A stretch of DNA of 64,000 nucleotides, taken from an uncultured Erysipelotrichaceae bacterium. GTDB taxonomy: Bacteria; Bacillota_I; Bacilli_A; RFN20; CAG-826. The DNA lies in contig CADBXE010000002.1 in assembly GCA_902798595.1 (NCBI GenBank), forward strand, positions 49,531-113,530, written 5' to 3'. Below the pieces are notes generated by a model. It searched no databases and had not been told where the DNA came from. It saw nothing but the letters and a program-made list of their open reading frames with translations. The first letter of the stretch is position 1, and every line of letters starts with the position of its first letter. Positions 1,396 through 24,124 of this stretch are shown one piece after another. The position numbers and the translations under genes are program-made.

Positions 1396-1396
1396 T

Positions 1397-2170: not shown

Positions 2171-2172
2171 TT

Positions 2173-3540: not shown

Positions 3541-4148
3541 TGAGAACTAAATATAAACCTTGGGCCAAACCATTCATTGAAGAACACACCGAAGTGATGT
3601 GTCCTTTTGACGCGATTAATAATTATAAAAATTATTATTTAGAAGTTGGTTCTGGTAAAGGTCAATTCTTAGTTAACATGGCGAAGAATCATCCTGATAC
3701 ATTCTTTATTGGCATGGAATGTAACGTCACATGCGCAGGCTTTACCGCAAAGAAACTCGTGGAAAATGAAATTACTAACGCTAAGCTAGTTTATGCTTAC
3801 GCTGAACAAGTTTTACCGCTAATTGATGGGGGTAGTGTGAACGGCATTTTCTTAAATTTCTCTGACCCATGGCCAAAGAAGAGACACGCTAAAAGAAGGT
3901 TAACAAGTGACTCCTTCTTAAATCAATATTTACGCATTCTAAAGAAGGGCGCTAAGCTTATTTTTAAAACCGATAATTATGACCTATTTACTTACTCATT
4001 AGAACTAGTGCAAACTTCACCATTCAAACTCGTGGAAGCGAACTATTCTTATGATGGTAAAGACCCATTTGATGAGACTACTGAATACGAGGCTAGTTTC
4101 CGCGCTGAAGGTCAACCAATCTATCGTTTAATTTTGGAGAAGTTATGA
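3540..4148 (+). CDS. trmB: tRNA (guanine46-N7)-methyltransferase
   Basis: FLNFSDPWPKKRHAKRR motif typical of TrmB; TAATG overlap with pepV. Confidence 0.8.
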   Translation: MRTKYKPWAKPFIEEHTEVMCPFDAINNYKNYYLEVGSGKGQFLVNMAKNHPDTFFIGMECNVTCAGFTAKKLVENEITNAKLVYAYAEQVLPLIDGGSVNGIFLNFSDPWPKKRHAKRRLTSDSFLNQYLRILKKGAKLIFKTDNYDLFTYSLELVQTSPFKLVEANYSYDGKDPFDETTEYEASFRAEGQPIYRLILEKL

Positions 4149-4642
4149 TATCTAAATACGGATTAATTAATCATTTCGATAAGATTAACGCTTACTTAAG
4201 TATTATCTTTGATGATGTTCCAAAAAACCTTCTTCCAAAGCAAGATGAAGATTTATTAATTTATGAAAAAGATGGTAAGATTTACCGCATCGATATCTTT
4301 AATTTAAAGAAATATGTGAAGATTAGATTCCATGGCTTAATCACCTTACCTAACTATGAATTAATTGCTATCTTAAATGGCTATTTAGGTAAGTATGATA
4401 TTATGCTCATGAGTAAAGGTGATTCTGGTTTCTTTATCGTTAAAGATAATGATACTTACAAAGTAAAAGTTACAAAAGATACATTAACCGCTGATGGTAA
4501 ATTTGTAAAAGAAGATCGTTACGCCACATATCAGGATTTAGATGAAAGCGAACCAAATGAAGAGATCGTTTTGAATAATGATGATGTTAACGATAACGAC
4601 ATAAATAAAGATTTTTTCCAAATGGAGGAACGTGAAATATGA
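4145..4642 (+). CDS. Hypothetical protein (165 aa), acidic C-terminus
   Basis: ORF with ATGA overlap to trmB and ATGATG junction to the next gene; no family recognised. Confidence 0.4.
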   Translation: MISKYGLINHFDKINAYLSIIFDDVPKNLLPKQDEDLLIYEKDGKIYRIDIFNLKKYVKIRFHGLITLPNYELIAILNGYLGKYDIMLMSKGDSGFFIVKDNDTYKVKVTKDTLTADGKFVKEDRYATYQDLDESEPNEEIVLNNDDVNDNDINKDFFQMEEREI

Positions 4643-5736
4643 TGGAAGTAGAACTTAAAAAGCAAGGTAAGATTTCTCGTCTCACAAACAAAACATTTAA
4701 TTTCCCTAAAGAATTAGGCGAAGGCTTCTATAGCGCAAACTATTTCTTAAAGAGCCGTAAGATTGTCGCGGAGAACTTAAAAGGTCATATCGTGACCATG
4801 CAGTGGTTCCAAAGAAGAGACAATTCTATGCTCTGTGGTGTTGATGAAGCGATTGCGATTCTTCATACATTCGCAGTTCATCCAGAAGAACTCGTTATTG
4901 AAGCCTTAAATGATGGTGATATTATCCAAGCTAATGAACCAGTTTTAAAGGTCACAGGTACATATGAAAACTTTGGTTTTTTAGAATCCGTTATCGATGG
5001 TGTCTTAGCGCGTAGAAGTAGTGTAGCCACTAATGTCAAAGAAGTGCTTGATGCTGCCGGTGATACACCAGTATTTTCAATGGCCGATAGACAAGATGAT
5101 TTCCTCACCCAAGTTGGCGATGGTTACGCCACATATGTTGCTGGTATTAATAGAGTGAGCACAGACGCTCAAGGCTATTGGTGGGGTGGTAAAGGTATGG
5201 GCACTATGCCACATGCTTTAATCCAAATTTGTGGTGGCGATATTATTAAAGCCGCGGATGCTTACGCTAAAACATTCCCAGAAGAACAAGTAACTGCGTT
5301 AATTGACTATCACAATAACGTTGTTCGTGATTCCTTATTAATCGCTCGTCACTTAGGTCATAAGTTAAGAGGCGTCCGTGTTGATACTTCTAAAGCTCTA
5401 GTGGACCATTATTTTGATGATAAAGATACAAGTGGATTTGACCCACATGGTGTTTGTAAAGAACTCATTATCGCTTTAAGAAAAGCCTTAGATGATGAAG
5501 GCTTCAACTACGTTGGTATTACCGTTTCCTCTTCTTTCAACGCTGAAAAGATTAGAGAATGGAAGAAGTTAGGTGTTCCAGTGACTATGTATGGTGTTGG
5601 TACATCATTTGTTAACAACATGACATGTGGTTTCACTGGTGACTTAGTGATGCTAGATGGTAAAGGTGAAGCTAAAGAAGGTCGCGCTAACTACAATAAC
5701 GATAAACTTCAAAAAGTTCCTTATCCAATTTATTAA
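4639..5736 (+). CDS. Nicotinate phosphoribosyltransferase family protein (short archaeal/Thermoplasma-type NAPRTase)
   Basis: GTMPHAL and VRVDTSK motifs shared with the ~390-aa NAPRTase family; 365 aa. Confidence 0.55.
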   Translation: MMEVELKKQGKISRLTNKTFNFPKELGEGFYSANYFLKSRKIVAENLKGHIVTMQWFQRRDNSMLCGVDEAIAILHTFAVHPEELVIEALNDGDIIQANEPVLKVTGTYENFGFLESVIDGVLARRSSVATNVKEVLDAAGDTPVFSMADRQDDFLTQVGDGYATYVAGINRVSTDAQGYWWGGKGMGTMPHALIQICGGDIIKAADAYAKTFPEEQVTALIDYHNNVVRDSLLIARHLGHKLRGVRVDTSKALVDHYFDDKDTSGFDPHGVCKELIIALRKALDDEGFNYVGITVSSSFNAEKIREWKKLGVPVTMYGVGTSFVNNMTCGFTGDLVMLDGKGEAKEGRANYNNDKLQKVPYPIY

Positions 5737-5743
5737 TTAAAAG

Positions 5744-5770
5744 AAAAAAAGAGGACAAAGTCCTCTTTTA
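5744..5770. terminator. Bidirectional rho-independent terminator between convergent genes
   Basis: AAAAAAAGAGGAC-AAA-GTCCTCTTTTAATTTT hairpin with A-tract and T-tract on either side. Confidence 0.65.
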
Positions 5771-5787
5771 ATTTTGTTTATAATCGT

Positions 5788-7503
5788 TCATTCAACGTCT
5801 TGTAAAGCGTCATAGCCTTCTTCACCAGTTCTAACTTTGACAACGTTTTCAACATCATAGACGAAGATCTTACCGTCACCGATGTTACCGGTATATAAGA
5901 CTTTCTTCGCGGTTTCGATAACAGTTCTTACTGGAATTTTAGAAACAACGATATCGACTTGGACTTTTGGTAAAAGGTCCGCTTCGACTTGAACGCCACG
6001 ATAGAATTCTGGTTTACCTTGTTGTTGACCAAAGCCCATAACGTGAGCAACAGTCATACCCATAATACCGATTTTGCTCATCGCCGCTTTTAAGGCATAC
6101 AATCTTTCTTCTTTAAAGATAATTTCCACTTTAGTGAATTTAACGCCTGTCGTGGTGGTTTTAACTTTCTTAACAGGGATTGCTTCGCTAACTGGCATAT
6201 CTCCAGTCACAACTGATTCACTCTTAATGTAATCAGCATAAGCATTAGCAACGATAGCAAAGTCAGCGTATGCATTTATTAAGCCGTGTTCAGTGCTATC
6301 AAGACCTTTGATTTCTTCTTCTTTACTAACGCGTAAGCCAACGGTTTTCTTAATAATGAAGAATGTGGCAATCATACATACTGTGGTATAAGAAGCCACA
6401 CTAATAAAGCCTAAGCATTGTACGCCTAATTGATAGAAGTTACCGGTATAGAATAAGCCGTTAAGACCCGCTGGGGCTTTAGGATTGGCTAACAAGCCAA
6501 CAGCAATTGTACCCCAAATGCCATTAGCCATATGGACTCCAACCGCACCAACTGGATCATCAATATGGAGTTTGAGGTCAAGGAATTCGACCACAAAGAC
6601 CACTAAGATACCAGAAACCAAACCAACAACTGTGGAGCCAATAGCATCAAATGCTGCACATCCTGCTGTGACACCAACTAAGCCTGCTAAGCAAGCGTTG
6701 ATACACATAGAGACGTCTGGTTTACCGTTTTTAATCCAAGTAAAGATCATCGTTGTAACAGTCGCCACAGCTGGAGCAATGGTGGTATTTAAGAAGATAG
6801 TCGCTAATTCACTAGTGGAAGTAGCGGCAGCACCGTTAAAACCATACCAACCAAACCATAAGATGAACGCACCTAAGGCGCCTAAAGGAATAGAATGACC
6901 TTGAATAGCGTTAACTTTAATAACTTTGCCATTTGCATCTCTTTCGTATTTACCAATACGTGGACCAAGGATAATCGCACCAATAAGAGCAGCGATACCA
7001 CCAACCATATGAATAGCGGTGCTACCAGCGTAATCGTGGAAGCCAAGACTCGCTAACCAACCACCACCCCAAATCCAGTGGGCTTCAATTGGATAAATAA
7101 TTAAGGATATAACCGCGGAATAAATACAATATGATAAGAACTTTGTTCTTTCTGCCATAGAGCCAGAAACGATTGTCGCTGCAGTAGCGCAAAACACAAG
7201 ATTAAACACAAATGTTGAAGCAGCGGTAAATCCTTCCGCAGGACTTTCAATAAACGCTGCAAATTTAGCGAATAAATCAAGATTAGGTACACCAATAAGA
7301 CCGAAGAATGCGTCTTCGCCCATCATTAAGCCAAAACCTAATAACATGAAGACTACTGTACCAATACAGAAGTCCATTAAATTCTTCATGATAATGTTGC
7401 CAGCGTTCTTTGCACGTGTGAAACCAGTTTCAACCATCGCGAAACCCGCTTGCATAAAGAAGACAAGAGCCGCACCAATTAAGTACCAGAATTCAATTGT
7501 CAT
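5788..7503 (-). CDS. amt: Ammonium transporter Amt fused in-frame to a C-terminal P-II (GlnK/GlnB) nitrogen-regulatory domain
   Basis: N-terminal FMQAGFAMVETG Amt signature; last ~115 aa read EIIFKEERLYALKAAMSKIGIMGMTVAHVMGFGQQQG...GDGKIFVYDVENVVKVRTGEEG, a full-length P-II; RBS GGAGG ahead of the ATG. Confidence 0.8.
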   Translation of the reverse strand: MTIEFWYLIGAALVFFMQAGFAMVETGFTRAKNAGNIIMKNLMDFCIGTVVFMLLGFGLMMGEDAFFGLIGVPNLDLFAKFAAFIESPAEGFTAASTFVFNLVFCATAATIVSGSMAERTKFLSYCIYSAVISLIIYPIEAHWIWGGGWLASLGFHDYAGSTAIHMVGGIAALIGAIILGPRIGKYERDANGKVIKVNAIQGHSIPLGALGAFILWFGWYGFNGAAATSTSELATIFLNTTIAPAVATVTTMIFTWIKNGKPDVSMCINACLAGLVGVTAGCAAFDAIGSTVVGLVSGILVVFVVEFLDLKLHIDDPVGAVGVHMANGIWGTIAVGLLANPKAPAGLNGLFYTGNFYQLGVQCLGFISVASYTTVCMIATFFIIKKTVGLRVSKEEEIKGLDSTEHGLINAYADFAIVANAYADYIKSESVVTGDMPVSEAIPVKKVKTTTTGVKFTKVEIIFKEERLYALKAAMSKIGIMGMTVAHVMGFGQQQGKPEFYRGVQVEADLLPKVQVDIVVSKIPVRTVIETAKKVLYTGNIGDGKIFVYDVENVVKVRTGEEGYDALQDVE

Positions 7504-7670
7504 AATAATTCCTCCTAACTATCAAAAAATAGTTCATGAGGGGATTTTAAGGTTTTACGATATATTAATCAAATACGTATAAAGTTATAGTTACGATACG
7601 GAAAAAGTATGTAAAGAAAGTTTAACGTATCGTATATAATAACTTCGTATCTCACTCTTTTATATAAAAG

Positions 7671-7697
7671 AAAAAGCAGAATCAATTACGACTCTGC
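7671..7697 (-). terminator. Rho-independent terminator of the Ser-rich lipoprotein gene
   Basis: GCAGAGTCGTAATTGATTCTGC stem on the minus strand followed by a T-run. Confidence 0.4.
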
Positions 7698-7720
7698 ATT
7701 ATTTTTAGTTTACCTATTTA

Positions 7721-10177
7721 TTAGCCCCAAATAATTTCAATTGATGAAATATAGATAGCGCCATAGTTACTTCTAATACCAATATAGGCATAGGAATCAG
7801 TGAATGTATATGCTGTATTGGTGTCAGTTTTAGCAATACTACCAACCTTTGTCACACTTGAACCATACATATCTGCGATTTCGAATGGTTCATTAGAAGC
7901 ATAGATATCAATGACTCTGGAATTGTTTGTACCGCCATCAAAGTTGATAGTGATTGATTGACATGTCATACCATCCATATGACCAATGATACCAGAGCAA
8001 TCATCTTTACTCTTTAATTGAATGCCTGTGCCGTTGGAGCAGAAAGCTTCATAAGTTGCACCGTCATCAGTGGTCACAGTGTGTTCTTTGTATGGAGTGG
8101 TGCCATCTAAACCAAGAAAATCAGGTGTTAATGTGTGAGTCACTGTAGAAGCGGCCACTTTGATTGTGGCTGTAGAGGTGAATTGACTGCTATATGTAAG
8201 AGTAAGAGTCGCTTCTGCACCTGGAATGGCAGTTTCAGCAACTGTCACTTTACCGTTTTGGTCAACACTGATACCGACATTATCTGGATTAACAGTGTAA
8301 TCAAGTGTAAAGAAGATATCGGTCACACCATATGGTAATAAATCAAAGTGAGTGTTGACTGATTCACCTGGTTTAACGCTGTATGTGTCTTGACTAAACT
8401 TAATACCTGAAACAACAGGGTCTTTAACTGTAAATTTACATGAGGCAGATACACCGTTAACCGCTTTAACAGTAATGGTGACTTCTGAATCTGCCGCAGC
8501 TTCACTATTAATAGTGACTAAACCAGTTTGATCAACTGTGGCGATATCTTCATTGCTTGAACTCCAAGTGAAGTTATTATTCGCGTCAGCTGGTTCGTAA
8601 CTAACTTCTAATTTATAGTTTTCGCCTTTAACGATTTCTAATTCGGTAGTGTTTAATGTAAGACTCTTTACTTGTGGAACGCTTGATTCGGAGAAGTAAA
8701 CCCATAAACAGTTACCATTTTCATAGCCCACAGCGACTTCAATAAGAGCAGCGCCATTATCTTTAACATAGTATGTTTCACCTTCGTATGTGGTGCTATC
8801 TTCTTTGTAACCATTAGCGAGTAACACTTTAATGTAATCGTTTGTTAAATCCTTATAATAATAATCTCCAAGGAATAACAAATCATAACCCATCATGTCG
8901 ACTGTTTGTTCAATCGTGTAGTCATCACCGAATTGCATGAATGGTAACACTTCAAAGAGAGTATCATTCATTAATTCTTTTTCGGCATCTGTCCAATCTG
9001 TGTTTTCGGTTAATGTATCTGTTAAGACATCTTCGAACCTATAGACACCGATAATAGTGTTGTAACTATCATCATCAAGAGCAAAGTTTAAATAGACTGT
9101 ATGATCAGTGTCATAAGCGGTCGCGGTGTAATAAACATACTCTTCATAGTATTCGTCATAATCAACGTTTCTAGTTAATGTGGCTTCAAAACCAGATTGA
9201 TTTAATAAATCTACATATTCTTCGATTTTATTGCCTTCTAAGAAGGTATAAGCACAATCTGGATAGTAATAACCATCATCAGTGTGTTCTTCCACAAATA
9301 AGAATGGGAATTTACCTTCACCAATATGTGGAATAGTAACGTTTGTGCCTAAGGCAGCGTTGATTTCGGCATTTGGGAATTGGTTAACAATGTCATATTG
9401 ACCATAGTTAACAAAATCAACATACCAGTTTGTGTCAATCTTACTAATATCTAAGGAACCCGCGCCCTCAATACGTGCGACTTCAAGGCAGAAATAATCT
9501 TCCACTGCGAAGAAGTTGAAGAAGAATTCTGAGCCATATTCATCGTTGCCGAATAAATAGCCATATTCTTCATAAGTGTTATATTCTTCATGGTTCATGC
9601 ATTCTAAACCATTGAAGTTTGAAAAGACGTTATATAAATCCGCTTCTAATTCAGAACCACCGTTTTCTGATGTACCACGGACAACGTATTCTTCAACGGA
9701 ATAGTGATAGAACACTTCATAATCTAAGTTATAAGAATTTAATGATGGCACTTTAGCGTTTAAACCATCAAGGAGTTTAGCAATTGTGCTATCTAATGTT
9801 TCGGTTTCAACGATAGTGCCACCGCTTGAAGAAGTGGAACTGCTTGAACTTGAACTTGAAGAAGTTGATGAACTACTTGAAGAGCTTGAACTGCTAGAAG
9901 TACTGCTGAACGAGTTACTTGAAGAGCTTGAACTGGAACTACTAGAAGAAGAACTGCTAGATGTTTGTGTTTGGCTGGAAGAGCTGGTACTAGAAATACT
10001 AGTAGTGGAACTTTCAACGCTATTACTTGTTGTAGATGAAACTACAGGTTGTTCACTAAATTGACTTGTTTTATCTTCTGAACTACTTGTACCGATATTA
10101 CAAGAGGCTAAGGAGACACTAAGCAATAATGTGAACATTTTAATTATGCTTTTTTTCATGTTGTAATTTTCCTCCAA
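7721..10177 (-). CDS. Large surface lipoprotein with poly-Ser/Thr linker and tandem bacterial Ig-like (Big_2) domains
   Basis: Signal plus lipobox LLSVSLASC; ~70-residue Ser tract; Big_2-like segments (ATVDQTGLVTINS...VTITVKAVNGVSASCKFTV). Confidence 0.6.
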   Translation of the reverse strand: MEENYNMKKSIIKMFTLLLSVSLASCNIGTSSSEDKTSQFSEQPVVSSTTSNSVESSTTSISSTSSSSQTQTSSSSSSSSSSSSSSSNSFSSTSSSSSSSSSSSTSSSSSSSSSTSSSGGTIVETETLDSTIAKLLDGLNAKVPSLNSYNLDYEVFYHYSVEEYVVRGTSENGGSELEADLYNVFSNFNGLECMNHEEYNTYEEYGYLFGNDEYGSEFFFNFFAVEDYFCLEVARIEGAGSLDISKIDTNWYVDFVNYGQYDIVNQFPNAEINAALGTNVTIPHIGEGKFPFLFVEEHTDDGYYYPDCAYTFLEGNKIEEYVDLLNQSGFEATLTRNVDYDEYYEEYVYYTATAYDTDHTVYLNFALDDDSYNTIIGVYRFEDVLTDTLTENTDWTDAEKELMNDTLFEVLPFMQFGDDYTIEQTVDMMGYDLLFLGDYYYKDLTNDYIKVLLANGYKEDSTTYEGETYYVKDNGAALIEVAVGYENGNCLWVYFSESSVPQVKSLTLNTTELEIVKGENYKLEVSYEPADANNNFTWSSSNEDIATVDQTGLVTINSEAAADSEVTITVKAVNGVSASCKFTVKDPVVSGIKFSQDTYSVKPGESVNTHFDLLPYGVTDIFFTLDYTVNPDNVGISVDQNGKVTVAETAIPGAEATLTLTYSSQFTSTATIKVAASTVTHTLTPDFLGLDGTTPYKEHTVTTDDGATYEAFCSNGTGIQLKSKDDCSGIIGHMDGMTCQSITINFDGGTNNSRVIDIYASNEPFEIADMYGSSVTKVGSIAKTDTNTAYTFTDSYAYIGIRSNYGAIYISSIEIIWG
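9826..9965 (-). repeat. Low-complexity tandem Ser-codon repeat (AGC/TCT/AGT and GAAGAGCTTGAACT-like units) inside the lipoprotein gene
   Basis: Visible reiterated units on the plus strand (cttgaacttgaacttgaagaag... gaagagcttgaact x2). Confidence 0.6.
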
Positions 10178-14231: not shown

Positions 14232-15360
14232 TATCATCTATCTTGATAACGCTGCTACCGCCAAAGTTGATCCAGAAGTTTTAGATTCATACAACCAAAT
14301 CACACTCAAATACTTTGCCAATCCAAGCAGCATACATTCTCTTGGACAAGAAGCTTCACGCTTATTAGATAAAAGCCGTGAGCAAATTTTAAACGTTCTT
14401 AAACTAACTCATCACGAGGTGATTTATACCAGTGGTGCGACCGAGGCTAATAACCTAGCCATCAAGGGATATTGCTTTGCCAATCGTACACGCGGCAATC
14501 ACATCATCACCAGCGTGAGCGAACATCCTTCCGTTTTAAACACCGTTTTAGAACTCAAAGATTTTGGTTATGAAGTGACCATTCTTCCAGTCAATGAAAA
14601 AGGCGCAATAGAGGTTAATTCTTTAAAGGCTGCTATCAAGGAAAATACCATCTTAGTTTCCCTTATGATGGTCAACAATGAAACTGGAGCGATTAATCCA
14701 ATTAAAGAGATTGGCAAATACCTCAAAAAGTTCCCGAAAATTGCTTTCCATGTTGATATGGTTCAAGCGATGGGAAAACTTCCATTAGATTTAGAAAATA
14801 TCGATATGTTCTCTATTGCTGGTCACAAGATCCATGGTCTATTAGGTTCTGGCTTATTAGTTAAGGAAAAGAAAATTATTCTTAAAGCCATCAATAATGG
14901 TGGTGGGCAAGAAAACAACTTAAGAAGTGGCACAAATGCATTGGCCCTTTCTGCTTCATTAGCCAAAGCTGTTAGAATCGCTATTTCTAACCAGGCTAAA
15001 GATTATGAACATGTTAAAGCGTTAAGCAAAAAATTACTCGATTATCTTAAAGATAACCAAGATAAATATCTCATTAACTCACATTTTGAAGAGAATCCAT
15101 ATATCGTTAATTTCTCTCTTCGTAATCATAAAGCCAGTGTTGTCGTTGAGGCTTTATCAAATAGAGGTATTATGGTCTCATCCTTATCTGCCTGTCACGC
15201 TAAGCACGAGGACTACAGTGCAGTCGTCTATGCGATGACTAATGATCTCAACATCGCTCACAATACAATCCGTGTTTCCTTTGGAAGAGATAACACACTA
15301 GAAGAAGTTGACGAACTCGTCAAAAACCTTGAACAAATTATTAAGGAGATTAAACAATGA
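14224..15360 (+). CDS. iscS: Cysteine desulfurase (NifS/IscS class V aminotransferase)
   Basis: MANIIYLDNAATAKVD start, PLP-lysine region SIAGHKIHG, and SLSACHAK active-site Cys region; start moved to the in-frame ATG at 14224, overlapping the ezrA stop. Confidence 0.8.
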   Translation: MANIIYLDNAATAKVDPEVLDSYNQITLKYFANPSSIHSLGQEASRLLDKSREQILNVLKLTHHEVIYTSGATEANNLAIKGYCFANRTRGNHIITSVSEHPSVLNTVLELKDFGYEVTILPVNEKGAIEVNSLKAAIKENTILVSLMMVNNETGAINPIKEIGKYLKKFPKIAFHVDMVQAMGKLPLDLENIDMFSIAGHKIHGLLGSGLLVKEKKIILKAINNGGGQENNLRSGTNALALSASLAKAVRIAISNQAKDYEHVKALSKKLLDYLKDNQDKYLINSHFEENPYIVNFSLRNHKASVVVEALSNRGIMVSSLSACHAKHEDYSAVVYAMTNDLNIAHNTIRVSFGRDNTLEEVDELVKNLEQIIKEIKQ

Positions 15361-16547
15361 TCACCTATGACCACATCATGATTCGCTTTGGTGAATTATC
15401 CACTAAAGGCAAAAACAAAAAAGATTTCATCCGCACTCTTGCGGATAATATTAAAAACGCGCTCAAGGATTGGCCAGAACTATCTTTTGAGACTAGATAT
15501 GACCATATCTATGTAGGTTTAAATAATCTCCCATACGAACCAGTTATTGAAAGACTTCAAGATGTCTCTGGTATTCACGCTCTTTCTTTAGTGTATCGCG
15601 CTAGTAAAGACATCGAAGATATCAAAAATAGTGCTTTAGCACTAATGAGAGAAGAACAAGGTAAAACCTTCAAAGTCAAAGTCAAAAGAGGCGATAAGAC
15701 ATATCCAATAATTTCTGATGAAATAACCCGTATTGTCGCCAGTCATGTTTTGAGAAATACACCTGATTTAAAAGTCGATGTCCACAATCCGGAAATATTG
15801 CTTTCCATCGAAGTGAGACAAGAAGCGGCTTATATCTTTTCTAAAACATTTTTAGGCGCTGGTGGGTATCCATTAGGCGTTGGTGGTAAGAGTATGCATA
15901 TGCTCAGTGGTGGTATTGATTCCCCGGTTGCAGCCTACTTGATGATGAAAAGAGGTGTGAGCATTGAATGTATTCACTTTGCTTCCCCACCATATACTCA
16001 AATGGGTGTTATCTATAAGCTAGAAGACTTGCTCCATGTCTTAAATAGATATCAAACACGCATTAGATTGCATATTGTTCCATTTACTAAAATTCAAGAA
16101 GCTATCTATGATAACGCTCCAGAAAGCTATTGCATCACCCTTATGAGAAGAATGATGTTTAGATTAGCGGATGGTCTTGCAAAACGTCGAAAATGTCCAG
16201 TCATCAGCAGTGGTGAATCTATTGGTCAAGTTGCATCGCAAACTTTGCAATCAATGCATGTCATTAACGCGGTCACAAATACACCAGTAATCCGTCCACT
16301 TGCGACTACCGATAAATTAGAAATTATTAAGATTAGTAAGAAGATCGGTACATATGATATCTCAATTAGACCTTATGAAGATTGCTGTACGATCTTTACA
16401 CCAAAGGCTCCTAAGACCATGCCTCACCAGGACGAAGTTGAAGCCTTTGAGAAGAAATTTGATTACGAGACAATGATTAAAGAAGCCTTGAATAATATTG
16501 AGGTCAAAATCATCTCCTTAGATCAACAAGAGGATAATTTACTTTAA
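15357..16547 (+). CDS. thiI: tRNA 4-thiouridine synthase ThiI
   Basis: MIRFGELSTKGKN THUMP start, PP-loop SGGIDS; ATGA overlap with the desulfurase. Confidence 0.85.
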   Translation: MITYDHIMIRFGELSTKGKNKKDFIRTLADNIKNALKDWPELSFETRYDHIYVGLNNLPYEPVIERLQDVSGIHALSLVYRASKDIEDIKNSALALMREEQGKTFKVKVKRGDKTYPIISDEITRIVASHVLRNTPDLKVDVHNPEILLSIEVRQEAAYIFSKTFLGAGGYPLGVGGKSMHMLSGGIDSPVAAYLMMKRGVSIECIHFASPPYTQMGVIYKLEDLLHVLNRYQTRIRLHIVPFTKIQEAIYDNAPESYCITLMRRMMFRLADGLAKRRKCPVISSGESIGQVASQTLQSMHVINAVTNTPVIRPLATTDKLEIIKISKKIGTYDISIRPYEDCCTIFTPKAPKTMPHQDEVEAFEKKFDYETMIKEALNNIEVKIISLDQQEDNLL

Positions 16548-16552
16548 CTAAG

Positions 16553-16578
16553 ACGCCACTCGGTGGCGTTTTATTTTT
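16553..16578 (+). terminator. Rho-independent terminator after thiI
   Basis: ACGCCAC-TCG-GTGGCGT followed by TTTATTTTT. Confidence 0.7.
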
Positions 16579-16588
16579 CGTAAAAAGT

Positions 16589-16616
16589 TTGATTTCACCT
16601 CAATAATCTTTATAAT
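16589..16616 (+). promoter_or_regulatory. Sigma-70-type promoter of the TM-AAA cassette
   Basis: TTGATT -16 nt- TATAAT located 40 nt ahead of the ATG at 16656; GAGG RBS at 16644. Confidence 0.45.
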
Positions 16617-16655
16617 AGTTAAAGTACTATTATCACAAGTGATGAGGCTATAATT

Positions 16656-19367
16656 ATGAAACTATTCACAGACTTCAAAATAAGACGCATTGTTGCCTTA
16701 GTGGCATTTTCGTTGGAAACCCTTTTGCTCCTACTATTCTTCTTCTTTGGCGTGAGAGATGGTAATGCATTCACTCTTTTTGCTGCTGATTCAGAAATAG
16801 TAGCAACGGGAACCAAGATTATTCATATCCTAGTGCTCCTAGTGACTGCAGTAAACATTATCTTATCTATCCGTGGCTTGGCTTTGGAAATCTATAAAAA
16901 GCGCAGTCTTGGTAATGAGATTAGTTGTGCTGTATTGAACTTAATGCTCATGATTGTTGCTGCGGCGAATAAAATCTATAATCTCGTTTTCCCAATACTT
17001 GTCTTTATCATCGCTTTAGCACTATTGGCTTATAATCTTTATTTCTATTACAGAAACAAAGGTCAAGAAACAACCGCTAAGTTAACTCCTAAAAAGGAAG
17101 AACTTAGAGCCTCATATATCACTTTTGCCGTTTTAGCGGCTTCATTAATTGCCTCATTCTTAGTCTTTGTTATTCCAGTTTGTTATTACAATAAACAACC
17201 ATATTTCAAGCTATTTGATGCTTTCGGTGAGGATGCAACCCTAGCAAACGTTTTCTCTTTCATGGGATTCTTTGTTCTCTTCCTTGCCCTAATCGTTTAT
17301 ATTTCTCACGTTATTTCCTACTTCAAAAACGATTCACAAAAACTCTTTAAAAAATCACGTAAAGCTTTATATTTCTCATTTGCTTTCACTGTTGCGTTCT
17401 ATATCTTCGCAGTTGTTATTCAACACGTCTTCATGAAAAGCGTGAAGAATAATTTAGTTATGGAAGGCGAAATCTTTGATGATGAAGCTTTATCAACATA
17501 TAGTACCGCCTTTGTTCCAATCATTGTTAACGCTCTTGTTGTTATTGCTAATGCTGTTTTTGTGGCGAGATATATCGAAAACAAAGAAAAGAAGAAAGAT
17601 CCAAAGTTCTTAAACAGAACAGTTGCGTTAGGCTTCACCCTTGCTTTTATCGGTTTATTAATTGCCGCTATCTTATCTAACATCATCGTTATTAGATTTG
17701 AATCAGACCTTGAACTCACGACTGTGAGAATTAATGGTTTCTCTATGCTTAAGAACTTCCATGATATCAATAAAGCGGAATATCAAGCTTTTGCTTTAAT
17801 CATTTATTTCTTGCTCGTTGGTATCGTGATTATGGTAACAACTTCTATATCCTTATATATAAGAAGATCCAAATTCTTCTACAAGGCTTCCTTAATTTCT
17901 ATTATTGCTTCCTTCACCGCGATTGTTTGTGTGGCTATGTTTGGTAAATACTATCAAATCGCTGAAAGAATCAACAATGCGACATTAATGGAAATTCTTG
18001 ATTACTATGGTGCAGATATTAACTTTGAATTTACAACAAAAGTCACATCACAAACTATTTACTTTGCTGGTGCTGCATTAGTACTTATGGTGGCTTTAAT
18101 CTTTGCCAGACCATTCTCAAAACAAATCAAGGACGAAGGTATTGATGTCAACATTAATAGCGTTGATGATTATGGTGCCCTTGCCCCTGCTGGTGGTAGT
18201 GGTTCCCCATTAGGTAGAGAAGATGTTTCTGATGCTAGAAGTAGAGACTTTGATGCTTGCCCAGCCTTCAGTGAAATCGATGGTGAAGAAGAAGAAATTC
18301 TTCTTGATGTTGAACAAAGAAGACAACAAGCTTTCAAGAGCCCATCCTTACCAACCATCGTTAGATTCATTGTTGAATACGCCAAAGAATCGAGATTGCA
18401 TCTTTCATATAAAGAAAGTGAAATTGCACAATTTATCGCTGGCCTAGGTTCTTCTAAATTAAGCATCCTTCAAGGTATGTCTGGTACAGGTAAAACATCC
18501 TTACCAAAAATCTTCTCTGAAGCCATTTTTGGCGATGCTTATATCGTTGAAGTTGAATCTTCCTGGAAAGATAAAAACGAATTGATCGGTTACTATAATG
18601 AATTCAGTGGTAAGTTTACGCCTAAGAAATTTGCCCAATCCTTATACCGCGCTAAATTCTCTCCAGATGTTATTACATTTATCGTTCTTGATGAAATGAA
18701 CTTATCTCGTATTGAATACTACTTCAGTGATTTCCTTTCCTTAATGGAAAACGAAGAAGATAAGCGCGACTTTAAGTTACTTAATGTCCAACTTAAGAAT
18801 ATTAAACATGGTCAAAACCTTTCTTATAAACAGCTCATTAAAGGTCACACCTTAAAAGTTCCAGCAAACGTTTGGTTTATTGGTACAGCGAATAGAGACG
18901 AATCCACATTTGAAATCTCTGATAAAGTTTATGACCGTGCGATGACTATGAACTTCTCCGCAAGAGCGGACAAAATCAAAGCGTTTAATGAACCAATTGA
19001 TAAACGTTTCTTAGATTACAATGTCTTCAAACAATTAATGGATGAAGCCACTAAATCATTCTATTTTGATGCTTCAACAAGCCCAACAATCAAAGAAGTT
19101 GAAGCGCTCTTAAGACCATACAACATTTCCTTTGGTAACCGTGTCGAAAAGCAAATTGAAACATTCGTTTCCATTTACTGTTCATGTTTCACAGAACCAA
19201 GAAAAATGGTGGACGAAGCAATTGAAAAAATCTTATTAAGTAAGGTTGTTGCTAAACTTGAATTCAAGAGTGTGGAAAACAAAGAAGAACTTGCTCACGC
19301 TTTTGAAAAGCTTGGCTTAATGGAATGCGCATCCTTTGTCATTAATAAATTAAACGAGGACTTCTAG
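16656..19367 (+). CDS. 903-aa fusion protein: polytopic membrane domain (~12 TM, residues ~1-490) plus acidic Gly/Pro linker plus McrB-type AAA+ (AAA_5) NTPase domain
   Basis: Walker A LQGMSGTGKTS, Walker B FIVLDEMNL, FIGTANRDES (McrB IIGTMN-like sensor) and VYDRAM (Arg finger region); N-terminal half entirely hydrophobic helices. Confidence 0.6.
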   Translation: MKLFTDFKIRRIVALVAFSLETLLLLLFFFFGVRDGNAFTLFAADSEIVATGTKIIHILVLLVTAVNIILSIRGLALEIYKKRSLGNEISCAVLNLMLMIVAAANKIYNLVFPILVFIIALALLAYNLYFYYRNKGQETTAKLTPKKEELRASYITFAVLAASLIASFLVFVIPVCYYNKQPYFKLFDAFGEDATLANVFSFMGFFVLFLALIVYISHVISYFKNDSQKLFKKSRKALYFSFAFTVAFYIFAVVIQHVFMKSVKNNLVMEGEIFDDEALSTYSTAFVPIIVNALVVIANAVFVARYIENKEKKKDPKFLNRTVALGFTLAFIGLLIAAILSNIIVIRFESDLELTTVRINGFSMLKNFHDINKAEYQAFALIIYFLLVGIVIMVTTSISLYIRRSKFFYKASLISIIASFTAIVCVAMFGKYYQIAERINNATLMEILDYYGADINFEFTTKVTSQTIYFAGAALVLMVALIFARPFSKQIKDEGIDVNINSVDDYGALAPAGGSGSPLGREDVSDARSRDFDACPAFSEIDGEEEEILLDVEQRRQQAFKSPSLPTIVRFIVEYAKESRLHLSYKESEIAQFIAGLGSSKLSILQGMSGTGKTSLPKIFSEAIFGDAYIVEVESSWKDKNELIGYYNEFSGKFTPKKFAQSLYRAKFSPDVITFIVLDEMNLSRIEYYFSDFLSLMENEEDKRDFKLLNVQLKNIKHGQNLSYKQLIKGHTLKVPANVWFIGTANRDESTFEISDKVYDRAMTMNFSARADKIKAFNEPIDKRFLDYNVFKQLMDEATKSFYFDASTSPTIKEVEALLRPYNISFGNRVEKQIETFVSIYCSCFTEPRKMVDEAIEKILLSKVVAKLEFKSVENKEELAHAFEKLGLMECASFVINKLNEDF

Positions 19368-19368
19368 A

Positions 19369-20859
19369 ATGACCAAATCTTTAGGATATAAAGATGCCAT
19401 TAGGTTTTTAAACCAATTCGACAATATCACATATCCTGAGTTTGATTATTATTCCGTTACTAACATCAATCTCTTTACTTCTTTAGAAGCGGTTGATTTC
19501 AAAGAAATCGATGGACATATCACAGAGATTGAAAAAACTCTTGGGGCCATTAAAAGAATATTTGCCACCCCAATCATCCATCTTATTGACGAAGACGTTC
19601 TTGCTCCAGTGGAAGCGGTGAGACTCATTAATACCAAAACAATGAGTTATGCTTCTAATCATTCAGAGTTATGGGAAGACCTCACTGAAGATGGCATCAA
19701 ACCCAGAAAATTATTAACTAATAATTATCGTGATAACTACGCAATCTACGAAAACATTGTCTTCGCTAGATGTGTTTCTTATTGCTTAAATTATGCCCGC
19801 CATTACAATCGTCTTCTGTCTGATATAGTTTTTGCGAATAATAAGCTTGAAATTGACCTCTTACAGAGGGAAAACCATCTTTCATATTATTTGGCCTTAG
19901 GCAAACTTGAAACTGGCTATATTCGTTCGTTTGCGGACTATTCTGACATTGCTTTAAAACTTATCGCGAGAATGGAATTTATTATTTCTGTTTTAGAAGC
20001 GAGATTAAAACGACCAGTCTATGTTCAAGCCCGTAAATACAAAGGCAAAATCAAATTAAGAAAAACCAACATTTTAGCGATGCATAAGGATTATCAAAAA
20101 ATCTATCGCTTTATGAAAAAGATATATGGTAATGATGTCGAAGAGATTAGAGAGGACATTGATCCTAAAGAATATCTTTATTACTGCAAATTACTCACAA
20201 TCTTCTCAATTGGTCATTTCAACTTCCAAATGCCAAAAGACGATAAGATTTCTTTTAAGAAACTCAATCTGAAATTTAGCTTTAAAGAATATCAACTCAC
20301 TGTGAAGGACACAAAAGTGGATGGTCATCCTGCGCTCGAATTAACATTCTTTAAAGATAAAGAGTACAAAATGCTCTTGGTGCCTTCCGTGGATAATATC
20401 AAATTCACTTCGTCAGAAGTGGAAACCCACGTTCTTTCCCCAGAATTTGAAACTGACGATATTCTCGTATCCATCAATAATATTGATTCCTTCAGACGTA
20501 TCCAACAATTGCTTCTAAAAGGCATGGTGTATTCTAGTGATGATTTTGATAACTGCCCATTCTGTGGCGGAAAGATGATTAAAGAAAACAATATCTATTC
20601 CTGTGATGTTTGTCGTACAGAAATCATTAAGACACACTGCGAAGAAGAAAATAAAGATTACTTCATCACCGGTATTAAAAACTACAAGTTAAAGCCATAT
20701 GAAGAAGAACTCGCGAAGAACAAACGTTTCCAAAAGAGAATGGTGGAAGGTTTAATGCATTATCGTAATATCACTAAAATCACTAATGATTTATCATGTG
20801 TATGTCCGTACTGCAAAAAGGTGCACAAGATAGAAAAAAATGAGAAACAAAAAAGCTGA
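19369..20859 (+). CDS. 496-aa partner protein of the TM-AAA gene, C-terminal double zinc ribbon (possible McrC-like or novel effector subunit)
   Basis: Starts 1 nt after the upstream stop with GAGGA RBS; C-terminus CPFCGG-x13-CDVC and CVCPYC; no PD-(D/E)xK motif recognisable by eye. Confidence 0.5.
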   Translation: MTKSLGYKDAIRFLNQFDNITYPEFDYYSVTNINLFTSLEAVDFKEIDGHITEIEKTLGAIKRIFATPIIHLIDEDVLAPVEAVRLINTKTMSYASNHSELWEDLTEDGIKPRKLLTNNYRDNYAIYENIVFARCVSYCLNYARHYNRLLSDIVFANNKLEIDLLQRENHLSYYLALGKLETGYIRSFADYSDIALKLIARMEFIISVLEARLKRPVYVQARKYKGKIKLRKTNILAMHKDYQKIYRFMKKIYGNDVEEIREDIDPKEYLYYCKLLTIFSIGHFNFQMPKDDKISFKKLNLKFSFKEYQLTVKDTKVDGHPALELTFFKDKEYKMLLVPSVDNIKFTSSEVETHVLSPEFETDDILVSINNIDSFRRIQQLLLKGMVYSSDDFDNCPFCGGKMIKENNIYSCDVCRTEIIKTHCEEENKDYFITGIKNYKLKPYEEELAKNKRFQKRMVEGLMHYRNITKITNDLSCVCPYCKKVHKIEKNEKQKS

Positions 20860-20880
20860 GCAGATGCTCAGCATTTTTAT
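20855..20880. terminator. Bidirectional terminator (cassette end / rplT end)
   Basis: GCTGAGC-AGAT-GCTCAGC with AAAA upstream and TTTTT downstream; overlaps the TGA stop. Confidence 0.65.
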
Positions 20881-20893
20881 TTGATTAACTTAA

Positions 20894-21466: not shown

Positions 21467-22027
21467 CTACTTCTTCTTTGGTGCGAGTATTGCGTACATC
21501 CAACGGCCTTCCATGGCTGATGGCTTTTCAACATTCGCGAATTCACTTAATTGAGCAATGAACTTATCCATGACTTCCTGACCGACTTCGATGTGAGTCA
21601 TTTGACGGCCACGGAAACGCACACCAACTTTAACTTTGTTACCGGCTTCTAAGAATTTTTGAGCCGCTCTGGCTTTGGTATCCATATCATGTCCACCAAT
21701 TTGTGGTGTTAATTGGACTTCCTTAACTTCAACAACGTGTTGATTTTTCTTGGCTTCTTTGGCTTTCTTTTGTTGTTCAAAGCGATATTTGCTGTAATTG
21801 ATAATCTTGCAAACTGGAGGTTTGGCGTTAGGCGCCACACAAAGAAGGTCCATATCATATTCATTGGCCTTGAATTGTGCCTCGCGAGAAGACATTGTAC
21901 CGATTTGTTCACCATTTGGTCCGATTAAAAGGACTTCTGGAAAACGAACGTTTTCATTAACTAAATCTTTGTTTTGGTTGTTGCCAGGTTTTTTGTTATT
22001 GGCGTAGCGATTGTCGATGATAAGTAT
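21467..22027 (-). CDS. infC: Translation initiation factor IF-3, non-AUG start (ATA at 22027 or ATC at 22021 after AAAGGAG)
   Basis: IF3 homology begins around NKDLVNENVRFPEVLLIGPNGEQ; the 242-aa ORF-track version has a non-homologous N-terminus, and a GGAG RBS sits at 22032-22035. Confidence 0.75.
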   Translation of the reverse strand: MLIIDNRYANNKKPGNNQNKDLVNENVRFPEVLLIGPNGEQIGTMSSREAQFKANEYDMDLLCVAPNAKPPVCKIINYSKYRFEQQKKAKEAKKNQHVVEVKEVQLTPQIGGHDMDTKARAAQKFLEAGNKVKVGVRFRGRQMTHIEVGQEVMDKFIAQLSEFANVEKPSAMEGRWMYAILAPKKK

Positions 22028-22034
22028 CACACTC

Positions 22035-22170
22035 CTTTTTGTTAAAAAACGGATGCATATCGCACCCGTTAACATTCTTAGCCCATAAGAAGTAGCGTTA
22101 GCCAACCAATATTTTATCAGTCTGGCGAGAAGCGGGTGCCTCTGCTTTCTACGTTTTAGCGATAAGATAT
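22035..22170 (-). promoter_or_regulatory. infC-rpmI-rplT leader, putative L20-binding autoregulatory RNA
   Basis: GC-enriched leader with long-range complementary GCACCCG ... CGGGTGC segments ~70 nt apart, as in Firmicute L20 leaders. Confidence 0.4.
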
Positions 22171-22204
22171 TATCATTATTAATATAATGTGTCAAATAGT
22201 TTTG

Positions 22205-24124
22205 TTAATTCGTTTTTGATAAAAAGTTCTGCAATTCTTCAATTGGAATTGGTCTAGAGTATTTGAAGCCTTGAAGGTAGTCCGCTGATAAACTTAAGCA
22301 GCGTTCCTCATCAACATCGGTTTCAATACCCTCATACAAAACACGGTAGTTGAAATTACTGAAGATTTTTGCGAGATTTTCAACAAGCTTTTCAGAACGT
22401 TCATCTTCTCCAGAAGCAATGATCATCGATCTATCAAATTTGATGATATCAAATGGTAGTTCGAAAATACGTTCAATATTAGAATAACCAGTGCCAAAAT
22501 CATCAAGGTAGAATTTGATACCTTTTTGGTGAAGAGTAATAATTCTTTCTTTCATAATCATGAAGTCTTCAAGATTCTGAGATTCGGTTAATTCAATAGC
22601 AATAAGTTCTGGGGAAATGTCGTTACTTTCAATGATGTTAAGGATATCATCACAGAATAGTGGACTCTTGAGTTCTAATGATGAAACGTTGATACTAATT
22701 CTCTTAAAAGAGAATCCTTCTTTTTTATATTGACGAATCATTTGACATGTTTTGTTGAGAACAATTTTGGTGATGACATGAATGCAATCAATTTCTTCGG
22801 CGACAGGAATAAATAAACCAGGATTGATTAGACCGCGTTTTTCTAACTTTAATCTTGTCAACGCCTCTGCAGTATCAAATCGTTTTGTGGAGATGTTATA
22901 AACAGGTTGAGTAAACACCAAAACGCGTGGATCATTAAGATCGCATTTTTTGGCAATATCTGTTAATTCATCAACGATATAACGAAGTTCCTTATATTGA
23001 TTGAGATCACTATCTTTGACGCGATGAATGACATTAAGAGGAATATCTTTAAAAATGTGTTCGATAAACGCTGCATATTCGTTATAAGCGATTTTGCCTT
23101 TGAGCGATTCACCATAGACAACCTTATAAGGAATTCTTAAAGCTGTGTATTGTTCTCTAAAAGCTTTAATGATTGTTGCCATCCATTCTTCATAGTCTGG
23201 ATTTCTATCTTTTCTAGCAATCATAATGACTTCGCCATTATTGATTTGGAACATAATAGCGTCTCTAAATAGCTCTAACGCAAAACGACGAATTTGTGTT
23301 TTGATTGATTCTGGCAACGATTTGCCCTCACCAACATAATCTGGTAAAACCATGCACATAAAGATAAATTCTTTATCTCTGATATAAAGATTTTTTACCA
23401 TGTTACGCATAGCGTATTTATCTAAAGTACCAGTTGAAACATTGTATGGGTTGGAGTGCATCGTGTAAAGCATAACAACGACCGGAAGAACAAAAGTAAA
23501 TGTTGTTAACGAAGACTCATGAATAAATAACTGTGCGGTTCTGATAAACACGGAAAGCGCCATTGTAGCAAAGAAACTATACACAACTCTCTTAAAGAGA
23601 AGTTTTCTAATTCTCACAATGACAATAGCGAGGAATATTACGTATATGTAATAACCCGCGATAAAGATATCATATGAACCGAGATATGCCGTTCCATCTT
23701 CAGCAATATAAAAACCAAGACCAATCGCGGTAAACCATATATCGACAGCGACCATTAATAAGAATAGGCCTAAGGATGTAAAGGCAATGATTCTTGCTTG
23801 CTTAATATGTAATTCCGAAATAGTAATCGCGTAAAGCGTGAATAAGAAAAAGACAATAAACAAAGACGAATGGAACGCAATACGGAGAACATAAATGAGA
23901 TATTTTAATTCTTCGCTATAGACACGCAGTAATTCGTGATAGCCAATATTAACAATTGCAGCTAAAACGATAAAGCCGATAATACCAGAGAAAATTTGAT
24001 ATCCTCGCGTCTTGTTAACGTACGAAAAAGTTAACAAGATGAAAACCACACAGCAGAGAGCGATGACACCAACATCACCCATACGTGAATATGTTCTAAT
24101 TAATTCAGATCCAAAAACAGGCAT
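22205..24124 (-). CDS. Membrane-anchored c-di-GMP phosphodiesterase: ~7-TM sensor domain plus degenerate GGDEF plus EAL domain
   Basis: EAL-domain motifs ELTESQN, DDFGTGYSN, KFDRSMI; mid-region aligns to GGDEF but reads ARKDRNPDYEE in place of GGDEF. Confidence 0.65.
   Translation of the reverse strand: MPVFGSELIRTYSRMGDVGVIALCCVVFILLTFSYVNKTRGYQIFSGIIGFIVLAAIVNIGYHELLRVYSEELKYLIYVLRIAFHSSLFIVFFLFTLYAITISELHIKQARIIAFTSLGLFLLMVAVDIWFTAIGLGFYIAEDGTAYLGSYDIFIAGYYIYVIFLAIVIVRIRKLLFKRVVYSFFATMALSVFIRTAQLFIHESSLTTFTFVLPVVVMLYTMHSNPYNVSTGTLDKYAMRNMVKNLYIRDKEFIFMCMVLPDYVGEGKSLPESIKTQIRRFALELFRDAIMFQINNGEVIMIARKDRNPDYEEWMATIIKAFREQYTALRIPYKVVYGESLKGKIAYNEYAAFIEHIFKDIPLNVIHRVKDSDLNQYKELRYIVDELTDIAKKCDLNDPRVLVFTQPVYNISTKRFDTAEALTRLKLEKRGLINPGLFIPVAEEIDCIHVITKIVLNKTCQMIRQYKKEGFSFKRISINVSSLELKSPLFCDDILNIIESNDISPELIAIELTESQNLEDFMIMKERIITLHQKGIKFYLDDFGTGYSNIERIFELPFDIIKFDRSMIIASGEDERSEKLVENLAKIFSNFNYRVLYEGIETDVDEERCLSLSADYLQGFKYSRPIPIEELQNFLSKTN

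Follow-up and report, generated by a model that had tools for sequence, protein, structure and literature searches.

What is the function of a McrBC-like gene pair whose NTPase is fused to a large membrane domain and whose partner appears to have lost its nuclease? This question is raised by a 64,000-nt stretch of DNA from an uncultured Erysipelotrichaceae bacterium (GenBank assembly GCA_902798595.1, contig CADBXE010000002.1), which is referred to here as the window and whose numbering is used for all coordinates. Downstream of thiI (15357-16547) lies a cassette of two genes on the + strand, for which the listing of open reading frames (ORFs) gave gene 1 (16656-19367, 903 aa) and gene 2 (19369-20859, 496 aa). 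An earlier interpretation of the same DNA made without database searches, the sequence-only reading, had described gene 1 as a membrane-fused McrB-type NTPase and gene 2 as its McrC-like partner, and both ORFs, their coordinates, and the 1-nt gap between them were confirmed. With slightly better than even confidence, we interpret the cassette as a two-gene unit that is derived from the McrBC family and complete in itself, placed in the NxD branch together with CoCoNuT, which lacks a nuclease, is anchored in the membrane, and would serve as a conflict system.

The C-terminal part of gene 1 is a McrB-like AAA+ NTPase domain (18261-19364, aa 536-903). The motifs on which the sequence-only reading had based its McrB/AAA_5 assignment were all found, namely Walker A (GMSGTGKT, 18474-18497, aa 607-614), Walker B (IVLDEMN, 18681-18701, aa 676-682), and the signature FIGTANRDES (GTANRDES at 18882-18905, aa 743-750). 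The signature reads N746-R-D748-E; this is the NxD(E) variant of NxxD, and the canonical NxxD form is not present. Pfam AAA_5 recognized gene 1 with E = 0.0023, which is below the gathering threshold, and the match to McrB in the PDB was likewise weak (aa 583-754, E = 0.04). The best library match of gene 1 was PDC-M26A, the model for component A of a PADLOC candidate system (E = 1.6e-45), which covered the GTPase part alone (approximately positions 284-557 of the 724-position profile). Because P0233, a GTPase from a CoCoNuT-type operon, was matched equally well (E = 2.3e-54), as were relatives with four transmembrane (TM) helices, PDC-M26A simply models the NxD GTPase branch. No PADLOC model, including any PDC-M26 partner, matched gene 2 at E <= 1, and no publication on PDC-M26 was found in the literature search.

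When the soluble half of gene 1 was used as the query, at least about 8000 relatives were returned, and GTAN(R/K)DE was essentially invariant among the 120 matches listed. The closest TM-less relative examined was P0233, which showed 51% and 38% identity over two blocks in BLASTP; these blocks include the segment before the AAA+ core, which is conserved as CPAFSEID in gene 1 and is common to CoCoNuT-type GTPases. In the P0233 operon (locus L087), VWA-PP2C-kinase genes and an AAA_11/12 helicase are followed by the GTPase and then by two further genes including a CnuC-like one. The NTPase of gene 1 is thus a homologue of the McrB-family GTPases, and within them of the NxD/CoCoNuT-related branch, which also holds Hsp70-fused, FtsB-fused (CoCoPALM), and methylase-associated forms besides CoCoNuT (Bell et al. 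2024, eLife, PMC11090510). In a neighbor-joining tree of the GTPase domain, all TM-fused proteins formed one clade with short internal branches, and variants with three to four TM helices were nested within the 12-TM forms. Nearest to this clade was the methylase-associated, TM-less P0210, followed by the CoCoNuT-type clade.

Two peculiarities were observed among these relatives. P0210 (L101, 2462-4102) is a TM-less NxD GTPase whose gene overlaps that of a C5 DNA methylase located upstream. The Walker A half of the protein resembles ordinary McrB (GLAGSGKT...ADWTNREPLLGY), and in the C-terminal half the motifs are almost the same as in the TM family. P0210 may have arisen by natural recombination or as a chimera during assembly, since the coverage of its contig is 2.4x. 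In addition, many calls of 220-300 aa among the proteins P0186-P0246 start after Walker A and contain the NxD half alone. An example is the 220-aa P0240 of Mariniplasma anaerobium, and one of the calls comes from a complete cultured genome. These short entries could reflect gene splitting, pseudogene formation, or a different choice of start.

Gene 2 consists of a DUF2357-type McrC N-terminal region with a long helical-hairpin insertion (19369-20163, aa 1-265), a nuclease-like alpha/beta domain (20164-20538, aa 266-390), and a Cys-rich C-terminal region predicted to bind zinc (20539-20856, aa 391-496); its AlphaFold2 model had a predicted local distance difference test (pLDDT) score of 81.4. 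The gene 2 family has at least 679 members. Pfam DUF2357 matched gene 2 itself with E = 0.022, below the cut-off, and was detected in 22 of 43 family members with a best E of 3.4e-5. Distant tblastn matches on plasmids were annotated as DUF2357 and were located beside AAA ATPases. When the family profile was compared with the protein at the CnuC position of L087, a colinear alignment of approximately 370 columns was obtained (hhalign 99.6%, E = 2.5e-24). Furthermore, the N-terminal motifs of gene 2 recur in the 689-aa CnuC of a CoCoNuT operon in MT835511.

Alignment of the 43 homologues revealed the invariant or nearly invariant motifs PVEAVR, HSELW, and DNYxIYEN in the N-terminal region, LALGKL, RLKRPVY, KTNILxMHKDY, and GHFNF, and the helix SFRRIQQ in the nuclease-like domain. 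The Cys-rich region was similarly conserved as CPFC...CxxC...C...FRNIT...CPxC, which in gene 2 itself corresponds to CPFC, CDVC, C424, HYRNIT, and CPYC. The sequence-only reading had assigned two CxxC knuckles to the C-terminus; the motifs are indeed present, but as three pairs (396-399, 412-415, and 479-482) plus Cys424. Zinc-ribbon Pfam families were matched in many family members, and the best sequence match of the region in the PDB was a ribosomal eL43-type zinc ribbon. The same reading had found no recognizable PD-(D/E)xK nuclease. This was right as to the catalytic residues, for after residue 130 the 43 sequences have neither an invariant acidic residue (Asp or Glu) nor a (D/E)xK motif, and the nuclease-like domain has no conserved Lys; nevertheless, a domain with the secondary-structure order alpha-beta(5)-alpha, which fits the PD-(D/E)xK fold, is kept at aa ~266-390. 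Since DUF2357 and the CnuC profile match are combined with missing catalytic residues, gene 2 is a McrC/CnuC homologue, predicted to be nuclease-dead. An inactivated nuclease plus CPxC zinc ribbons is the state given for Type II CnuC (PMC11090510). An alternative catalytic site in the N-terminus (E82, H98, E100, D122, and YEN) was considered and rejected, as the same motifs are found in a CoCoNuT CnuC; these residues are generic DUF2357 features, probably involved in ring engagement.

The cassette shares with canonical McrBC of E. coli and T. gammatolerans (PDB 6HZ4, 6UT6, and 6UT5) an AAA_5-type NTPase with Walker A/B motifs and an Asn/Asp signature, and a DUF2357 partner that is located immediately downstream and is translationally coupled, as had been pointed out from the 1-nt gap. 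Canonical gene order and coupling would suit a conventional Type IV (McrBC) restriction enzyme, with modified DNA being cut by the nuclease domain of gene 2. However, the signature is NxD and not NxxD, a membrane domain replaces the DNA-reading N-domain of the NTPase, and gene 2 has zinc ribbons and no D...(D/E)xK conserved in its 43 aligned members. We therefore regard such an enzyme as very improbable.

The McrBC derivation of the pair, with the membrane domain in the place of the McrB N-domain, was borne out by the PDC-M26A match and by the NTPase, which is 38-51% identical to its counterpart in a CoCoNuT-type operon. The likeness to CoCoNuT (CnuB/CnuC; PMC11090510) comprises the NxD-type McrB GTPase, with its pre-AAA "CPA..I" segment, and in gene 2, compared with the CnuC-position protein, DUF2357 with a helical insertion, a catalytically empty nuclease-like domain, the S-F/Y-R-R helix, and CPxC zinc-ribbon motifs. 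In contrast to CoCoNuT, gene 1 has a 12-TM domain where CnuB has a coiled coil, and no separate coiled-coil gene corresponding to CnuA was seen linked to the pair, as judged without a dedicated coiled-coil predictor. CoCoNuT systems contain a tightly linked nuclease (active McrC, HEPN, or other) and often the CnuH helicase and the TerY-P triad (PMC11090510), whereas the cassette is a minimal two-gene unit with no linked HEPN or other nuclease, CnuH, or TerY-P triad. The TM forms also constitute a clade apart from the TM-less CoCoNuT-type GTPases. CoCoPALM resembles the cassette in that a McrB-like GTPase of the NxD clade is tethered to the membrane by an N-terminal fusion. CoCoPALM, however, has a single-pass FtsB-like domain, coiled coils on both proteins, and signal-peptidase/pilus-assembly neighbors (PMC11090510), whereas the TM-fused family has 12 (or 3-4) TM helices, no long coiled coil in gene 1, and no such neighbors.

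A polytopic membrane fusion of a McrB-like GTPase was found neither in PMC11090510, in which no mention of Mollicutes was seen, nor in the other papers covered by the literature search. The proposal that the cassette is a candidate undescribed McrBC-like module hence holds for the polytopic membrane fusion alone; the soluble parts belong to the described NxD/CoCoNuT-related branch (PMC11090510). As a separate observation, the contig MT835511.1 (L099, "UNVERIFIED Bacteriophage sp.", from human faeces) carries at 100-9455 a complete CoCoNuT-type operon beside a LexA/S24-like repressor. The operon encodes a fragment of an Upf1-like helicase, a protein of 535 aa, a CnuB of 824 aa that has a coiled coil and the signature GTANQDES, and the above 689-aa CnuC with SFRR and CPxC, and may represent a phage- or prophage-borne CoCoNuT.

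The membrane domain occupies aa 1-490 of gene 1 (16656-18125), and is joined to the NTPase by a low-complexity cytoplasmic linker rich in Gly, Ser, and Asp (18126-18260, aa 491-535), the length of which varies among homologues. No N-terminal nucleic-acid-binding specificity domain was found; residues 1-490 form the 12-TM domain instead. Hydropathy analysis indicated 12 TM segments between residues 7 and 484, and an AlphaFold2 model of the domain consisted of 12 long helices (pLDDT 75.8, predicted template modeling score (pTM) 0.65); the loops predicted to lie outside contain beta-hairpins. The topology follows the positive-inside rule, with the N- and C-termini of the domain both predicted to be cytoplasmic. 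The polytopic domain of approximately 480 aa proposed at the position of McrB's variable N-domain was thus confirmed.

The sequence of this domain is poorly conserved. Mean column identity in the family alignment was 30% with one invariant Pro, and no conserved charged or polar intramembrane residues were found. Conservation peaks in TM8-TM12, which is the part kept in the short variants. When the three 4-TM thirds were compared with each other as profiles, in-register matches had probabilities of 58%, 41%, and 21%, versus 2-10% for reversed controls. Because of these matches and the existence of 4-TM variants, the domain is probably built from three tandem 4-TM units. No Pfam or NCBIfam family matched the domain reproducibly, and no transporter or enzyme fold was matched among solved structures. 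In an exhaustive profile search of 1.84 billion representatives, 105 clusters with the membrane domain were obtained; since the GTPase is present in all 66 long clusters and the others are short fragments, the domain exists solely as a fusion to the NxD GTPase. A colinear match to the 12-TM protein MSC_0624 (NF045937, associated with the Mycoplasma F1-like ATPase), which would have provided a 12-TM partner for a ring ATPase and its shaft, was rejected as compositional or due to chance: its E value was 8e-5, its score of 21 bits compares with a cut-off of 70, and it was found with one of 32 family members.

By analogy with the solved McrBC complexes (PDB 6HZ4/6UT6), six gene 1 subunits would form a cytoplasmic NTPase ring that is held in the membrane by 72 helices, and one gene 2 subunit would plug the ring via its DUF2357 region and stimulate NTP hydrolysis. 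Nucleic acid may be bound by the nuclease-like and Cys-rich domains of gene 2. Binding of an invading nucleic acid, or a cue at the membrane level, would then be transmitted to the membrane domain via NTP hydrolysis. The output at the membrane could be permeabilization with abortive infection, or a block of entry, and the system as a whole would act at the cell membrane against phages or mobile elements. Membrane-located sensors or motors at the point where phage DNA enters have analogies in ZorAB of Zorya, KwaA of Kiwa, and the hexameric motors FtsK/SpoIIIE.

Because no nuclease is encoded in cis, the membrane domain would be the sole effector candidate, and it may also be a fast-evolving sensor. 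We tentatively suggest, as a possibility held with well below even confidence, that the membrane domain is the working end, in which an NTPase ring, plugged by a nuclease-dead McrC that reads nucleic acid, would use the energy of NTP hydrolysis for gating or rearranging a 72-helix assembly of tetraspan-like units, leading to membrane collapse with abortive infection or to a block of genome entry. If this is true, the McrBC chassis would have an undescribed output and would be capable of being converted from cutting nucleic acids to acting on membranes. Alternatively, the membrane domain could just tether a sensor/motor pair whose effector, e.g., a nuclease, is encoded elsewhere, similarly to CnuB/CnuC with separate CnuH and CnuE. 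CnuC homologues with an inactivated nuclease always depend on separate HEPN or other nucleases (PMC11090510), which speaks for a mere tether, as do the scarcity of conserved residues and the lack of conserved polar intramembrane positions in the domain and the nesting of 3-4-TM variants in the clade, which indicates that most helices are dispensable. On the other hand, no recurrent neighbor was found in 80 diverse loci, in contrast to the tight linkage of CoCoNuT effectors, and neither 12 helices nor an exclusive, family-wide fusion would be needed for a mere anchor. We judge the anchor explanation to be distinctly unlikely.

Whether the cassette behaves as an accessory element was examined in relatives retrieved by exact identity of the L20 protein. 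The genes of these relatives are arranged as in the window, in the order ezrA-iscS-thiI-[slot]-rplT-rpmI-infC-thrS-pfk. The module fills the slot in the window and in L094. Six contigs carry there a CDP-alcohol phosphatidyltransferase of 197 aa, joined in some of them by a 235-aa gene or an insertion sequence (IS), and L098 has a 112-aa ORF alone. L098 is the closest relative over ezrA-thiI (88.6% DNA identity), and its homology to the window in blastn ends at 16535 and restarts at 20846. Because congeners with identical L20 carry other cargo or nothing, with these breakpoints, the 4.3-kb cassette (16536-20845 from the blastn breakpoints with L098 and L091-L097 and from the slot gene content of the relatives) is a clean presence/absence polymorphism among congeners and thus accessory. 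The sequence-only reading had asked whether close relatives lack the cassette at the thiI/rplT junction, and those with an identical L20 protein do. None of the findings that could have overturned that reading was made: neither protein matched a characterized non-defence family, gene 2 is not a core gene, and the pair is not universal at this locus. A GC anomaly across the cassette and flanking repeats were looked for as signs of a mobile element, and neither was seen.

With regard to the alternative cargo, the module-less slots in L091-L097 contain the CDP-alcohol phosphatidyltransferase, accompanied in some cases by the 235-aa unknown gene and in L091 by an IS of the rve family. A membrane-lipid enzyme and a membrane-fused module are alternative cargo at one site.

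Subsequently, ratios of nonsynonymous to synonymous substitution rates (dN/dS) were calculated between the window and two module-bearing relatives. The dN/dS values were 0.02-0.18 in every sub-region of the cassette, and the dS of the cassette (0.5-1.6) was comparable to that of the flanks (0.4-1.1). These results show that the cassette is functional and that it has diverged together with the chromosome; nothing points to its recent arrival. The dN value was approximately 0.20 for the membrane domain and approximately 0.03 for the NTPase, gene 2, and core genes, corresponding to a 6-7 times faster amino-acid change in the membrane domain than in the remainder of the cassette; within gene 2, the nuclease-like domain changed fastest (dN 0.07-0.10). 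The specificity domain of canonical McrB is also variable, in parallel with the fast membrane domain. From its position and fast rate, the membrane domain seems to evolve like the target-reading domain of McrB.

That the cassette is a decaying remnant or an annotation artefact without function is scarcely credible. Short fragments without Walker A do occur among the database homologues, such as the 220-aa Mariniplasma call, but both ORFs of the cassette are intact, dN/dS is low throughout while dS is saturated, and the architecture is kept in 66 divergent full-length clusters.

The distribution of the pair was then examined in 80 species-representative genomes out of a search in which 216 fitted the search patterns. 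In every informative contig of the 80 genomes, a TM-fused gene 1 homologue was located directly upstream of gene 2, adjacent to it or overlapping, and the 4-TM variant of gene 1 has the same gene 2-type partner. The hosts, mostly wall-less or gut Bacilli with some Clostridia, include rumen and gut "Bacilli" metagenome-assembled genomes (MAGs), Anaeroplasmataceae, Acholeplasmataceae, Mariniplasma, Haloplasmataceae, "Tenericutes MO-XQ", and MAGs labeled Christensenellaceae or Clostridia; not all host labels of MAGs are reliable. No third conserved gene was found beside the pair, since the most frequent neighbor cluster occurred at 8 of the 80 loci, and most neighbors were transporters or metabolic enzymes.

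Two local features were also noticed. One MAG (JAFTKV01, RGIG3910) has a gene 2 homologue on each of two contigs (L040 and L051), which suggests two paralogous copies of the module or a mixed bin. In an Anaeroplasma-like sub-clade (L030, L036, L050, L058, and related loci, e.g., 9603-10772 of L005), two small genes are located at +1/+2 in 5-7 loci, one encoding a soluble protein of approximately 169 aa and the other a protein of approximately 220 aa with an N-terminal TM helix; these could reflect lineage synteny or could be extra components of the sub-clade.

The sequence-only reading had raised the question of whether homologous pairs sit in defence islands. In a census with defence models, 150 genes within two positions of the module were compared with 150 genes at least 4 positions away. 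PADLOC matches to mad2/3/8, AriA, Toprim, NsnB, and DndA/SspA among the neighbors were discarded as generic ABC-ATPase/IscS cross-matches, which were as frequent in the distance control. Genuine defence matches near the module were few, namely pAgo, SoFic, AAA_14-DUF4143, HipA, and Schlafen/AlbA_2, and a Pfam census of the 150 neighbors showed no recurrence of HEPN, helicase, or VWA. An association with defence islands was consequently not seen, and the genomic context as a whole is neutral with respect to a defence role.

Several of our results weigh against the interpretation as a conflict system. Defence-model matches among the nearest neighbors amounted to approximately 3-5% after removal of generic ABC-ATPase cross-matches and were not above the distance control. 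Neither a scan of viral contigs nor tblastn searches of sequenced phages and plasmids turned up the TM-type module; only distant CoCoNuT-type operons were detected. The locus in the window is core chromosome with no defence island; the remaining window contains leuS, amtB-PII, polA, dnaE, glgB, glgP, pheT, and ileS. The NTPase keeps approximately 60% identity across orders, a degree of conservation that is unusual for a defence gene and that a physiological role would explain as well. The NxD variant defines a major McrB-GTPase branch in which no system is reported to have been characterized experimentally (PMC11090510). Finally, hexamer formation, GTP specificity, nucleic-acid binding, and membrane disruption are all predicted properties.

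These points raise the alternative that the McrB/McrC chassis was exapted as an NTP-driven motor of a non-defence membrane machine in wall-less and gut Firmicutes, functioning in membrane remodeling, nucleic-acid handling, or quality control. Such a role would agree with the strong purifying selection, the approximately 60% identity of the NTPase across orders, the mostly housekeeping neighbors without defence-island enrichment, the failure to find the module on phages, plasmids, or viral contigs, the missing nuclease residues of gene 2, the presence of a membrane-lipid enzyme in the slot of congeners, and the concentration of matches in Mycoplasmatota-like lineages. It is less easily reconciled with the variable presence of the cassette among congeners with identical L20 and with the two copies in one MAG. 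In addition, the nearest relatives are all in conflict-type operons (CoCoNuT-type or methylase-associated), the fast N-terminal domain resembles an arms-race specificity module, and no conserved metabolic or structural partner gene accompanies the pair. We consider the physiological machine unlikely, though far from negligible, and retain the nuclease-less, membrane-anchored conflict system as our interpretation.

McrBC is a classic restriction system, of which the NxD/CoCoNuT branch was recognized only recently. If the cassette is a defence system, it would link a known AAA+ motor and plug to a sensor or effector at the membrane level, and its relevance would possibly be greatest in wall-less bacteria, where the membrane is the only phage barrier. 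If it is not, the McrBC chassis would have been exapted for membrane physiology. With two genes, no accessory partners, and mutable conserved residues known from the alignment, the cassette offers a compact and tractable entry to McrBC machines of the NxD clade.

The boundaries of the unit were defined by two hairpins that bracket the gene pair, as had been proposed. The upstream one is the intrinsic terminator of thiI (16549-16573, + strand), which has a stem of 11 bp, 5 of them GC, ahead of a T-run. The downstream one (20855-20872) is a bidirectional terminator that overlaps the stop of gene 2 and also serves the convergent rplT-rpmI-infC operon. Terminator-like sites were enriched in the region (13 found versus 6.2 expected). 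The sequence-only reading had also given the unit its own promoter. A sigma-70-like site, TTGATT-16-TATAAT, is present at 16589-16616 on the + strand, 40 nt 5' of gene 1, with 10 of 12 consensus positions; however, because promoter-like sites in the region were not enriched over shuffled sequence (28 found versus 33 expected), it is a plausible candidate only. Gene 1 is preceded by a ribosome-binding site, GAGG, read from the sequence at 16644-16647 (+ strand), 8 nt before the ATG. At the junction of the two genes (TAG-a-ATG), the GAGGA ribosome-binding site of gene 2 lies inside the end of gene 1, so that GAGG-type sites precede both starts.

Two further observations concern the neighborhood of the rplT operon. 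The infC ORF (21467-22195, - strand) was called as 242 aa from a TTG start codon, and IF3 of relatives is given as 184-216 aa by gene callers; the true start is probably internal and non-canonical. An internal non-canonical start is usual for infC.

The same backbone contains a second variable slot between infC and thrS (22205-24124 in the window, - strand). In the window, L094, and L098, this slot encodes a polytopic EAL-domain protein of 639 aa, which shows 70-74% identity between sister species versus approximately 95% for core proteins. In other congeners, it is occupied by a Schlafen/AlbA_2 plus HTH protein, by a HTH_26 protein plus DUF6036, or by nothing.

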